Shown here piece by piece: positions 23,097-26,474 of a DNA stretch of 32,000 bases (position 1 is the stretch's first letter; the number at the start of each line of letters is the position of its first letter). The notes under the pieces were generated by a model. That model was not told the origin of the DNA, did not search any database, and worked only from the letters and a program-made list of their open reading frames with translations. This DNA comes from an uncultured Psychromonas sp. Lineage in GTDB: Bacteria > Pseudomonadota > Gammaproteobacteria > Enterobacterales > Psychromonadaceae. A program made the position numbers and the translations under genes. The DNA lies in assembly GCA_963674525.2 (NCBI GenBank), contig CAXXRV010000016.1:12648-44647 (forward strand), given 5' to 3'.

Positions 23097-23352
23097 TTAA
23101 TAGCGCACAACTTACGCAGCCTTAGCCGCTCATGGCAACCAGGCTGCTCATTTTGTTTGCTCAGCAAGCATTTCCTCATTAATCACTCCTATAAACAGCT
23201 TTAGTCAATTACTAACAAACCCGGCGCAGCCATAGCTGAAAAATAACGCTCACCGTTGGCGGTTTTTATTAGCAGAAGTAAGCTATATTTTTAAATAGTT
23301 TGCCTTTAACTTGCTAATATCAACCAGATTAATTAACTGATCTGTTTTTATA

Positions 23353-23413
23353 TTGGAAGTGCGGTTTGAACCGCGCCTTATACCAAGCTGCGCGACTGAA
23401 GTCGCACTTCCAA
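23353..23413. other. 61-nt imperfect hairpin element with alternative local hairpins, 57 nt upstream of the PsiE-like start
   Basis: TTGGAAGTGCG (23353-23363) is the exact reverse complement of CGCACTTCCAA (23403-23413). The internal hairpins GCGG/CCGC (23361-23374) and GCGAC/GTCGC (23392-23405) each overlap the outer stem by 3 nt. Confidence 0.5.
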
Positions 23414-23469
23414 AAGTAGATCACAAACTTAATAATATTGGTATAACGGGCCACGCTGCGGAGAAAAAA

Positions 23470-23898
23470 ATGATAAGCGAAAAAGTAAAAAAGTATTTTG
23501 ATTTAATCGTCGATGCGGTTTTCGGGGTTATTCTGATATTTATTATCCTAGGTATTGCCATTGGAACACTGCAGCTCTTTTTAACAACCTGGAAGCTGCT
23601 TGCTTTCGAGGGGATTACCGGCCACTACATAGACATTATCGCCGATGTGTTGACCTTGTATGTACTGATTGAGCTATCCAAGTCCTTAGTTGAATACTTT
23701 AACTCGCACAAGCTGCGCCTGACATTTATCGTTGATGCTGCCATTGTGTTTGTGTTGCGCGAAATTCTTATTTCACTATTTAAGCATGAAATGCATCCGG
23801 ATATGCTTTATGCATTTTCGGTATTTCTGCTGGTGCTTGGTGCGCTGCGCATAGCCTCAGTGCTTGTCTACCAGCGCGAAAAGGACATCTTAGATTGA
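23470..23898 (+). CDS. PsiE-like (phosphate-starvation-inducible E family) small membrane protein
   Basis: 142 aa with 4 hydrophobic helices. The spacing and motif pattern (Y..L.E....VEYF......L.F.V......VLREI) resemble E. coli PsiE as I recall it. Confidence 0.5.
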   Translation: MISEKVKKYFDLIVDAVFGVILIFIILGIAIGTLQLFLTTWKLLAFEGITGHYIDIIADVLTLYVLIELSKSLVEYFNSHKLRLTFIVDAAIVFVLREILISLFKHEMHPDMLYAFSVFLLVLGALRIASVLVYQREKDILD

Positions 23899-23946
23899 CA
23901 TAAGCCTTTTCCTTTTAGGAAGAGCTGGATGGCAATCATATGTTGG

Positions 23947-24639
23947 TCAACAGCTCTTAAATATCTTTGCATTTTTGACAAGCTCACGAAATAAAGAGCG
24001 CTGGCTTGTCAAATAGAGTAGAAATTCGGGATGCCATTGTACTCCAATCAGAAAAGTCTGGGACGGGTCTTCGATAGCTTGTACGATACCGTCCAAGTCT
24101 CGTCCGGTAACAATTAACCCGTCGCCGACGCGATCGATTCCCTGATTGTGCAGACTGTTTATGCGTGACCGCTTGCGGCCAAAGAGGGTCGCTAACAGGC
24201 TGTCCTGTGTTTCCGGCTCAGTTGCGATACACAGTGTCTTGAGTGGTAGCACAGTCCATCGGTTAGATGTTTTCCGGCGTCGTGATCGCAGCGCTTGATT
24301 CAGCGTGCCACCCTGGCAAACATTAAGCAGTTGTGCACCTCGACAGATGCCGAGCAGGGGGAGTCTCCGAGTAAGAGCATCGTTTATAATGGCAGTTTCC
24401 AGGGTGTCACGTGCGCTATCGTAGTTAGGTTCGACTTCGGGTTCGGCGGCATAGAGCACAGGCTCTACATCATGTCCACCGGTTACCACGACGCCATCGT
24501 ATTGATAGTGGTGTTGCTCATCGCCAGGACGTAATTGCAGTGGACGTCCACCATACAGACGAACTGCCAGGGCGACTAACATACGGGGGCCAAATGAGCC
24601 ATGTTGCGGCCCCGTTATGGCGATTACCGGTCTAGCCAT
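23947..24639 (-). CDS. Class-I glutamine amidotransferase-like thiol peptidase (peptidase C26 / PuuD-like gamma-glutamyl hydrolase family)
   Basis: Nucleophile elbow LLGICRGAQLLNV, NSLHNQ and GVQWHPE (catalytic His/Glu). GGAG upstream of the start. The start lies inside the 3' end of the upstream gene. Confidence 0.8.
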   Translation of the reverse strand: MARPVIAITGPQHGSFGPRMLVALAVRLYGGRPLQLRPGDEQHHYQYDGVVVTGGHDVEPVLYAAEPEVEPNYDSARDTLETAIINDALTRRLPLLGICRGAQLLNVCQGGTLNQALRSRRRKTSNRWTVLPLKTLCIATEPETQDSLLATLFGRKRSRINSLHNQGIDRVGDGLIVTGRDLDGIVQAIEDPSQTFLIGVQWHPEFLLYLTSQRSLFRELVKNAKIFKSC

Positions 24640-25616
24640 TCTTTCTCCACCGTTTCGCTCCAGTCGCTAAAAATTTTTTTTACCGGACTATTAAGAAATT
24701 CGAGATATGCTTTACAACAGGATCCTAAGCGGGCTTCATCCGCAGCAAGGCGCTCAACCTCTACCCAATCATTCCAGGCAATATAAAGCCCCCAGTCGCT
24801 CTTGTCGATTTCGCAATCCGGCAGGCGATAATGAAAGGTCGGGCGCGATTTGATCCGTTCGTCATCCACCTTGGCATTCACCCGTTTCTCATCAAGGCAC
24901 ATGAACAGCGGAAGCATGTCGAGGGCGCGATTGCGGGTCGGGTTATAGGCGAGATAGTCGTCGATAAGGGTTGTCAGGTCGGGCCAGTAATCTGCTGAGA
25001 TAAGTTTCTTTACGTAATCAGCTGGAAAGGGATCGACGTAGCTTGTCACCTGTCGCGTGAGGTTAATGTCGGCACGCGTGAGTAGCCAGTCGTAAAGACA
25101 CATAAATGCTTTAAGGCAAGCTGTGATTAGTTTGGGATCGTGACTCGGCAGCTCTGGATTAAGTTGCATGCCGAAGGCATTGGTAGTGCTATCCGAGGTG
25201 CCCTTGGCACCGGCATCTCGTAGGTGAACAATCAGCTTTTCCACCTCTTCAAGACGATCCAGGGGAAGCGGCGGAGTGACAATCTCTACCGGCACAAGTG
25301 CTTCTGCGGCCCAGGCGAGTACATCTTCAGCTGAGCGCCCTATCTTGTCCACGAGCGCCTGGTCGTCGCGATGTTCGCGGCCTAGTTGCTTGAGCAGTTC
25401 ATAGTCTAGTTCGACAATCCAATCACCAGCCGCATCCCCTTTTAAAACGCGCTCGTAGCGCCCGTTCGAGGCAATGTCGAGACTGAAAAAGCTGGCTACC
25501 TGCTTGGCCAGCGTATCAAGGCTGAGTCCGCTCATCTCAAGTTCGACTCCCACCCGTCTAGTCTTGCCCTCGGCATTTTGCAGCCAGGGCAGCTGTTGTA
25601 AGTTTCGATTTGACAT
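24624..25616 (-). CDS. Putative amidoligase (Amidoligase_2 / glutamine-synthetase-like carboxylate-amine ligase fold)
   Basis: N-terminal RRVGVELEMSG strand (E-x-E metal/ATP motif of GS-like amidoligases), ~330 aa, and a conserved pairing with a GAT-like peptidase. The ATG at 25616 has AAGGAG 6 nt upstream; the ORF-track start at 25619 is a TTG. Confidence 0.55.
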   Translation of the reverse strand: MSNRNLQQLPWLQNAEGKTRRVGVELEMSGLSLDTLAKQVASFFSLDIASNGRYERVLKGDAAGDWIVELDYELLKQLGREHRDDQALVDKIGRSAEDVLAWAAEALVPVEIVTPPLPLDRLEEVEKLIVHLRDAGAKGTSDSTTNAFGMQLNPELPSHDPKLITACLKAFMCLYDWLLTRADINLTRQVTSYVDPFPADYVKKLISADYWPDLTTLIDDYLAYNPTRNRALDMLPLFMCLDEKRVNAKVDDERIKSRPTFHYRLPDCEIDKSDWGLYIAWNDWVEVERLAADEARLGSCCKAYLEFLNSPVKKIFSDWSETVEKEWLDR

Positions 25617-25620
25617 CAAT

Positions 25621-25660
25621 TACTCCTTAATGGATATAACTACTCCTTAATGGATATAAC
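25621..25660. repeat. Perfect 2 x 20-bp tandem duplication (tactccttaatggatataac) containing the amidoligase Shine-Dalgarno sequence
   Basis: 25621-25640 is identical to 25641-25660. On the minus strand each unit reads gttatatccattAAGGAGta. Confidence 0.95.
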
Positions 25661-25721
25661 ACGGCAGCTTGATGAGTGGAAATCGCGTAACGTGTGGCAA
25701 TTTCCAGAAACCAGTCAGCAC

Positions 25722-26195
25722 TTAATCATTGTTATGGCTGCAATAGAAATGGCGCGCTCCCTTTAGCAGCATATGAAATGCTTCGCCATCAACATGCACC
25801 AGATGTTTATGATCACCCGCTTCAAAAAAAACATTGGCCAGCATCAATAGCCTTTGGTCCTCGAATGTTTCCAGTCCATAGGCCGGGCCCAGTGGCGGAA
25901 TCGCACCGGATTGGCAATCACTAAAAAGCTGATCGATTTCAATTTCTTTCGCCAGTTCGAATTCCCGGCCGACCTCCTCTCTTATCGCCTTTAGCTTCAG
26001 CCAATGACTGCCCGGAATTACAGCCATGGCATAACCCTGTACATCTTTTACAATAACAGCTTTGGCAATATGATCATCGGGAATATGTGTCGCCTTTGCA
26101 CTGTCACGACTGGTATAGGTTGCTGGATGCGCCACAAGCTCATAATCAACTTGCTGTTCCGATAGATAAGATTTTATCGTTGCTGCAATGGACAT
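25722..26195 (-). CDS. YbaK/EbsC-like aminoacyl-tRNA deacylase domain protein
   Basis: 157 aa. L....V.YEL..H....T..D.A.......D..AK.V...D......AV.PG......K.....G....LA......LF.DC..GA.PP.G..YG is typical of the YbaK/ProRS-associated domain. AAGGAA upstream. Confidence 0.7.
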   Translation of the reverse strand: MSIAATIKSYLSEQQVDYELVAHPATYTSRDSAKATHIPDDHIAKAVIVKDVQGYAMAVIPGSHWLKLKAIREEVGREFELAKEIEIDQLFSDCQSGAIPPLGPAYGLETFEDQRLLMLANVFFEAGDHKHLVHVDGEAFHMLLKGARHFYCSHNND

Positions 26196-26474
26196 AATTT
26201 TGTTCCTTGTTAGTGAGTAGTTCGTATCATTCCCGTTTTAAGGCGAAGGCTGAACTCGTGCAAACTTGTAATCAGCTCGACATATCGCCGGGCCGATTAG
26301 AATTAAATTGTGACTATTTTGGCTCAAAGTATAGTAGTTAAATAGCAACGCCGTTCCTTGAATCTGTTTAACTTTATACCAGTTTTTAATAAACTGGACG
26401 AATATGAATGAAGACAGGGCTTCAGCCCTGCAGTATCATCATCGCTCATAGATAATATAAAGATAAAGGCTGAT

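Follow-up and report, generated by a model that had tools for sequence, protein, structure and literature searches.

A conserved amidoligase–C26 hydrolase gene pair in an uncultured Psychromonas sp. is a candidate module for reversible gamma-glutamylation of an amine

We analysed a 32,000-nucleotide stretch of DNA (hereafter the window) from an uncultured Psychromonas sp. (assembly GCA_963674525.2, contig CAXXRV010000016.1), which carries two overlapping genes for an amidoligase of the Amidoligase_2 family (PF12224; the ligase) and a thiol hydrolase of the Peptidase_C26 type (C26). With a probability of about 60%, we read this pair as a self-contained, translationally coupled two-gene module for the reversible gamma-glutamylation of an amine. 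That the ligase would produce a gamma-glutamyl amide is indicated most strongly by an interchange of its partners, seen in the sequences of related loci: C26, a GGACT/AIG2-like gamma-glutamyl cyclotransferase (GGACT, PF06094) and a gamma-glutamyltranspeptidase (GGT, PF01019) all occur next to the ligase. These three families have unrelated folds and have the cleavage of gamma-glutamyl-N bonds in common, and their shared place beside the ligase indicates that they substitute for one another. Since PF12224 was defined in 2009, no substrate has come to light for this family, although its members are widespread in phages, prophages and bacteria. Its simplest form is the chromosomal two-gene version, which is present in cultured, non-pathogenic bacteria (among them Kangiella koreensis, Salinivibrio costicola, Allochromatium vinosum and Marinomonas hwangdonensis) and is for this reason the most tractable entry to the product.

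Conservation of the pair and exchange of its partners

Scanning one genome per species yielded orthologous ligases with identities of 38-77% at 80 loci. When these loci were searched by tBLASTn with the genes neighbouring the ligase in the window, C26 was found directly downstream of the ligase in approximately 57 of the 80, while homologues of PsiE, Abhydrolase_11 and TrhO were found in none. Among the 55 complete pairs, 35 have the same 16-nt overlap between ligase and C26 as the window, the identities of the two proteins to their counterparts in the window co-vary (r = 0.90), and C26 is the better conserved partner in 48 cases. Judged by adjacency, overlap and covariation, the pairing is far beyond chance, and it is kept in relatives at just 34-41% identity. 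A first-pass annotation of this DNA had stated that amidoligases pair with a GAT-like thiol peptidase in proteobacteria, and the synteny bears this out.

Clustering the open reading frames (ORFs) of the loci revealed two more recurrent neighbours, GGACT (about 150 aa) and GGT (about 590 aa). We tabulated the adjacent partners on the same strand for 75 near-full-length, intact ligases, that of the window included (Table 1); 71 are partnered, with C26 present in 59 loci, GGACT in 28 and GGT in 8. These calls cover the 5-kb flanks only, and some loci scored as having GGACT only or no partner, L061 among them, lie near contig ends. The partner label switches at least about 20 times over a maximum-likelihood tree of the ligases. 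GGACT is encoded either just upstream of the ligase, giving a three-gene operon, or downstream in place of C26; in a Pelovirga/Geobacteraceae clade, it sits at exactly the position of C26, with the identical 16-nt overlap with the ligase. GGT is encoded directly upstream on the same strand, and the spacing varies between an overlap of 4 nt and an intergenic stretch of about 60 nt. The three alternative partners, taken together with the fold superfamily of the ligase (see below), point to a gamma-glutamyl bond. The gamma-glutamyl-type amide chemistry suggested at first pass is thereby strengthened, as both GGACT and GGT alternate with C26. For further work, the interchange narrows the chemistry to a gamma-glutamyl-N bond, with a 129-Da glutamyl adduct as the mass signature.

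Table 1. Partners encoded next to 75 intact orthologous ligases
Partner state	Loci
C26 alone	35/75
C26 + GGACT	18/75
GGACT alone	10/75
C26 + GGT	6/75
GGT alone	2/75
None	4/75

The survey also brought up a few unusual loci. Only two ligase genes are clearly decayed, one in Marinobacter halophilus with two in-frame stops (L014:5001-5987) and one reduced to a fragment in M. salicampi (L079); neither has a C26, GGACT or GGT neighbour, which fits decay following partner loss. Three different fusions of ligase and C26 into a single polypeptide of 564-620 aa were observed (L028:4992-6686 from an Arcobacter metagenome-assembled genome (MAG), P0216 and P0255). As each is known from just one or two contigs, they may be either Rosetta-stone fusions or assembly frameshifts. 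Finally, a distant ligase-C26 pair with overlapping genes (L104:1746-5210) lies between a gene of ProA size from the aldehyde-dehydrogenase family and a nadD-like gene followed by rsfS, and has probably been inserted into a conserved cluster, proA-nadD-rsfS.

Families and folds of the two proteins

Searches with Pfam hidden Markov models matched the ligase to PF12224 with 212.7 bits against a cutoff of 22 (E = 9.8e-63), the alignment covering profile positions 1-244 of 245, and both the family and the accession named at first pass were correct. The family as a whole forms 715 clusters at 50% identity among 1.8 billion representatives. Across 37 orthologues of the ligase, R20, E25, E27, E69, D71, E111, N153, R188 and D220 are invariant, as are the NPTRNR motif at 225-230, R258, H262, R264 and E288. 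The ligase had no relative among PDB chains by sequence, which left fold comparison as the only workable route, and no match among the PHROG families.

We therefore turned to an AlphaFold2 (AF2) model built from the 37-orthologue alignment (predicted local distance difference test (pLDDT) 88, predicted template modelling score (pTM) 0.87). Foldseek returned a plant Glu-Cys ligase as the best solved fold (2gwc, E = 3.4e-4, probability 1.0), followed by YbdK, glutamine synthetases, GshF and the gamma-glutamylmethylamide synthetase GmaS. All of these enzymes phosphorylate the gamma-carboxylate of glutamate. In the model, conserved acidic residues are placed on beta-strands in a manner that would be compatible with Mg-ATP binding and acyl-phosphate chemistry. 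Among predicted viral structures (BFVD), the model matched phage proteins named 'amidoligase enzyme' (probability 1.0, template modelling score (TM) 0.40-0.47). A role as a replacement for GshA is ruled out, since the genome carries canonical gshA, gshB and ggt genes. Several orthologous ligases (P0045, P0058 and P0107) are labelled 'alpha-L-fucosidase' in UniRef/NCBI; these names, and the name 'PuuD' given to fusions, look like propagated misannotations.

The downstream protein matched Peptidase_C26 (PF07722; E = 3.2e-46; 158.3 bits, cutoff 20.5) and, at a lower score, the glutamine amidotransferase family GATase (PF00117; E = 2.4e-13; 51 bits), in line with its earlier assignment as a C26 or class-I GAT-type enzyme. 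The motifs on which the two initial assignments had been based are present as well, RRVGVELEMSG near the N-terminus of the ligase and LLGICRGAQ and GVQWHPEF in C26. C26 aligns with Lin1909 (3fij, E = 8e-27) and with PuuD, its second-best solved relative (6vtv, E = 1.6e-23). The Cys of GICRG and the His and Glu of WHPE are in register with both, and by this alignment the predicted Cys-His-Glu triad is intact. Against the PuuD equivalog model of NCBIfam (NF008471), the protein scored 90.1 bits, under the cutoff of 266, and we classify it from sequence as a relative of PuuD and not as an orthologue.

A proposed glutamylation cycle and its alternatives

In the reading that we favour, the ligase would act in the cytoplasm, using ATP to activate the gamma-carboxylate of glutamate as an acyl phosphate and coupling the latter to a primary amine. 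The resulting gamma-glutamyl amide would then be cleaved by the Cys-His-Glu triad of C26, which would release glutamate and the amine. Such a modification could serve as a transient protecting group, as a buffer or store for a reactive amine, or as the form in which the amine is released outside the cytoplasm. The acceptor is most likely a small molecule, for example, a polyamine, an amino-alcohol or another alkylamine, because PuuD-type and GGACT-type enzymes favour gamma-glutamyl amines over gamma-glutamyl alpha-amino acids.

Several points weigh against this cycle. No substrate has been identified for any PF12224 member, and the similarity of the ligase to the folds of Glu-Cys ligase (GCL) and glutamine synthetase (GS) is remote (TM ≤0.39, 10-12% identity), so that the choice of glutamate for the carboxylate is extrapolated. 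Made in stoichiometric amounts, two enzymes that form and cut one and the same bond would run a futile ATP cycle unless kept apart temporally, spatially or by their substrates, and nothing in the locus accounts for such a separation. In the Puu pathway, other enzymes modify the intermediate between the ligase and the hydrolase steps; no such enzymes are conserved here. Moreover, two of the three partner types look extracytoplasmic by sequence, which is a poor fit to a make-and-break cycle in the cytoplasm.

This last point rests on the N-termini of the partners. In each of the eight GGT partners, the N-terminus carries a lipoprotein signal with a lipobox and Cys. The GGACT partners, without exception, start with a short positively charged stretch, continue with about 20 hydrophobic residues and have a conserved LLSPWGYxPP sequence before the catalytic domain, and the positive-inside rule would place this domain outside the cytoplasm. 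Taken together, the lipobox of GGT and the signal anchor of GGACT suggest that the gamma-glutamyl compound is probably encountered extracytoplasmically in about a third of carriers. A tentative alternative that we regard as doubtful would have the ligase make a gamma-glutamyl-amine that leaves the cytoplasm, or glutamylate an amine of the envelope or of a lipid; GGT and GGACT would deprotect the compound outside, and the cytoplasmic C26 would be the recycling or self-protection arm. If true, this would amount to a bacterial gamma-glutamyl 'pro-metabolite' cycle apart from the glutathione and polyamine pathways.

Two distant lineages hint at the membrane. In one (L089:5001-6713), the amidoligase carries a VTT/DedA membrane domain as an N-terminal fusion, the gene that follows encodes C26, and genes of lipid metabolism are close by; in the other, a marine lineage, a divergently transcribed VTT gene (L106:2261-2959) adjoins another distant ligase-C26 pair. 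Both would fit a membrane-associated substrate. As there are no VTT/DedA genes in the 80 loci or in the window, the link is limited to these two lineages. We also considered a GGACT partner encoded elsewhere in the window's own genome; its single PF06094 gene (C5:318177-318551) fails the profile of the partner GGACTs.

The reversible glutamylation that we propose for a small amine might instead be directed at proteins or peptides. In that case, the ligase would join glutamate, or the glutamate of a peptide, to a lysine or the N-terminus of a protein, and C26 would remove it, making the pair a minimal analogue of PafA/Dop pupylation. PafA and Dop are members of the GCL/GS-like superfamily to which the fold match of the ligase points, mammalian GGACT, which acts on epsilon-(gamma-glutamyl)-lysine, shares PF06094 with the GGACT partner, and peptide modification was reportedly raised by Iyer et al. 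in 2009. We nevertheless consider protein or peptide tagging unlikely: the 80 loci hold no conserved small ORF, tag or target gene, and their recurrent extras are GGACT and GGT only. The characterised enzymes nearest to C26, PuuD and those of the SpuA-like type, have small gamma-glutamyl amines as substrates, and a periplasmic GGT or GGACT would miss protein targets in the cytoplasm.

A third possibility is a glutamine-dependent amidotransferase, in which C26, as a GATase, would pass ammonia from glutamine to the ligase for the amidation of an ATP-activated carboxylate, as in MurT/GatD or CTP synthase. A class-I GATase fold with its catalytic triad is indeed present, and tight coupling, fusions and the higher conservation of C26 in 48 of 55 pairs are typical of obligate heteromers. 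However, 12 loci with an intact ligase have GGACT or GGT as the sole partner in their 5-kb flanks, although in one of them (L061) the contig ends 181 nt downstream and a C26 gene is possible there, and GGACT occupies the exact position of C26 in one clade. In addition, C26 scores 158 bits against Peptidase_C26 compared to 51 bits against GATase, and no GATase partner is known for any enzyme of the GS/GCL superfamily. An AF2 model of a natural fusion showed confident domains without a confident mutual orientation (linker pLDDT <50; pTM 0.62, compared to 0.87 for the ligase alone), which is a weak test because the alignment was unpaired. Overall, an amidotransferase appears improbable. Its sub-case of a product such as glutathione amide is speculative: Chromatiaceae carry the pair, but the pair is distributed far more widely than the known producers of glutathione amide, and the compound was undetected in the A. 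vinosum metabolome (PMC4213376).

Gene layout and origin of the pair

The genes and signals of the locus are listed in Table 2. Reading the sequence, we find the ligase stop codon (TAA) at 24626-24624, 13 nt beyond the C26 start codon (ATG) at 24639-24637, which accounts for the 16-nt overlap, and the GGAG Shine-Dalgarno motif (SD) of C26 lies 5 nt 5' of this ATG. The overlapping arrangement reported at first pass, its coordinates and the placement of the second gene's SD inside the first gene are thus all confirmed. The ligase ORF (24624-25619/25616, minus strand) offers a TTG start one codon upstream of the ATG.

Table 2. Features of the amidoligase–C26 locus (positions in the window)
Feature	Position	Strand	Description
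Amidoligase_2 (PF12224) gene	24624..25616	-	330 aa from ATG; predicted carboxylate-amine ligase that would use ATP, from the superfamily of glutamine synthetase and Glu-Cys ligase
Peptidase_C26 / class-I GATase-like thiol hydrolase gene	23947..24639	-	230 aa; predicted gamma-glutamyl amide hydrolase
Translational-coupling junction	24624..24651	-	16-nt overlap 24624-24639 and GGAG SD 24648-24645 within the amidoligase gene
Amidoligase ribosome-binding region	25617..25660	-	AAGGAG 25628-25623, 6 nt 5' of ATG
YbaK-like gene	25722-26195	-	157 aa; PF04073 tRNA_edit

Upstream of the ligase gene lies an exact 20-bp tandem duplication (copies at 25660-25641 and 25640-25621), the second copy of which contains the ligase SD. 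It falls in the junction between native ybaK DNA, where homology ends at 25714, and the acquired cassette. Neither the duplication nor the intergenic leader has a counterpart 5' of the orthologous ligases in the compared loci. Searches around the pair gave no meaningful riboswitch or other RNA element, promoter or terminator, and PADLOC defence-system models matched neither the ligase nor C26 or YbaK. With no promoter-like or terminator-like site separating ybaK and the ligase, the pair may be transcribed by read-through from the ybaK promoter.

The pair was not found in 23 of 24 congener genomes searched. The remaining congener (G014:C1:3275870-3276826, locus L095), the only one of the 24 with any PF12224 homologue, has a different amidoligase-C26 pair, which is 36-39% identical, sits at another chromosomal site and is an independent acquisition. 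In the closest congener (G011, 86-88% DNA identity), about 98 bp separate PsiE from Abhydrolase_11 (L097); in the window, the distance is 2.5 kb, and ybaK, the ligase and C26 lie between them. The block missing in G011 (23897-26431; ybaK-like gene, amidoligase and C26) marks a variable site in the genus. In five congeners, ybaK sits in other contexts without the pair. As ybaK is native and its homology ends at 25714, the foreign part of the block is essentially the ligase and C26 genes. These have a GC content of 52% compared to 47% for the window, and GC at third codon positions (GC3) is 0.56 in the ligase compared to 0.41-0.49 in its neighbours. Their nearest relatives are found in Desulfocapsa, Desulfuromonadales and Desulfurivibrionaceae MAGs (75-77% protein and about 77% DNA identity), and the maximum-likelihood tree of the ligases intermixes four phyla. 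The patchy distribution in the genus, the contrast in GC, the distant nearest relatives and the mixed tree together indicate, on sequence evidence, that the two genes move horizontally as a cassette, to which no mobility genes are attached in the window.

A dispersed repeat (23315-23447; about 133 bp) lies immediately upstream of the gene for the PsiE-like protein. It includes a 61-nt hairpin and looks similar to a miniature inverted-repeat transposable element (MITE) or a repetitive extragenic palindrome (REP). The genome has at least 15 copies at 91-98% identity, five of which recur every 228 bp on a contig designated C26 (377064-378106; a contig name unrelated to the peptidase). Weaker copies exist in congeners, the closest of which lacks the one at this site.

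The first-pass annotation had left a functional link to the YbaK-like gene open, and our data do not support it. The protein matches PF04073 tRNA_edit (E = 8e-22) and scores 29 bits, under the cutoff of 153, against TIGR00011, the equivalog model for the YbaK Cys-tRNA(Pro) deacylase. That the deacylase, the ligase and C26 form one tRNA-linked functional unit could be argued from their common strand, the 105-nt gap devoid of a terminator-like or promoter-like site between ybaK and the ligase, and the absence of the whole block from this site in the closest congener, but it is extremely improbable, given that a YbaK homologue is absent from all 80 related loci, that ybaK is a native gene of the genus, shared with five congeners that lack the pair (73-89% nucleotide identity), that homology to the nearest congener ybaK stops just past the ybaK stop codon, and that GC3 is 0.41 in ybaK compared to 0.56 in the ligase.

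Comparison with known systems

A search of published full text found no assay or experimental characterisation of any PF12224 member, which agrees with the first-pass description of the pair as experimentally uncharacterised. PF12224 features in this literature as an annotation in phage, prophage and genome papers citing Iyer et al. 2009. Papers on Klebsiella CfmP and on argolaphos that use the word 'amidoligase' deal with ATP-grasp or GNAT enzymes and not with PF12224.

The closest precedent is itself computational. Iyer, Abhiman, Burroughs and Aravind are said to have predicted, by comparative genomics in 2009, amidoligase neighbourhoods with a GAT-like thiol peptidase or an Aig2 cyclotransferase. 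The loci described here agree with these neighbourhoods in the ligase family, the C26-type partner in proteobacteria, the GGACT/Aig2 partner and a function that is predicted only. Nothing essential appears to differ, and the pair is an ordinary instance of a kind predicted computationally since 2009. What the present analysis adds, though the 2009 work may already list some of it, is the interchange among three partners, GGT being one of them, the probable extracytoplasmic location of two partner types (a membrane-anchored proteobacterial GGACT and, as third partner, a lipoprotein GGT), the ligase-C26 and VTT-ligase fusions, the exclusion of YbaK and the acquisition as a cassette.

Characterised systems offer partial parallels. 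In E. coli, PuuA is a gamma-glutamyl-putrescine synthetase of the GS fold and PuuD a C26 gamma-glutamyl-GABA hydrolase (GABA, gamma-aminobutyrate). The pair is similar in combining an ATP-dependent ligase of the GS superfamily (predicted here) with a Peptidase_C26 enzyme whose Cys-His-Glu triad removes the glutamyl group. In contrast, PuuA belongs to the true glutamine synthetase family and not to PF12224, and the Puu pathway includes PuuB and PuuC, which oxidise the intermediate and neither of which is conserved in the loci of the pair. PF06094 members such as GGACT and BtrG likewise strip gamma-glutamyl groups from amines. Glu-Cys ligase, YbdK, GS and GmaS are the nearest solved folds to the ligase, yet only at the low TM and identity values given above.

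A ligase and a hydrolase acting on one bond are not without precedent. The glutathionylspermidine synthetase/amidase of E. coli, Gss, is an amide ligase fused to a Cys-nucleophile amidase for the same bond, and shows that such futile-looking pairs exist and can be switched by oxidation of the amidase Cys. Its folds (ATP-grasp plus CHAP) are unrelated to those of the pair, however.

Finally, a GS-like amidoligase fold, as judged by the structural model, is probably shared with the cassettes of phiEco32-type and LUZ24-type phages and with Firmicutes prophage pairs of an amidoligase and a gamma-glutamyl cyclotransferase. Amidoligases of phages and prophages are associated with gamma-glutamyl-cleaving enzymes (PMC11318856). 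The ligase of the window differs from the phage amidoligases in sequence, being just 10-16% identical and without a PHROG match. The phage cassettes comprise 5-10 genes, including ATP-grasp and class-II amidotransferase genes, whereas the window carries a chromosomal two-gene unit with no phage context. Solving this two-gene system would probably explain the larger phage cassettes, too.

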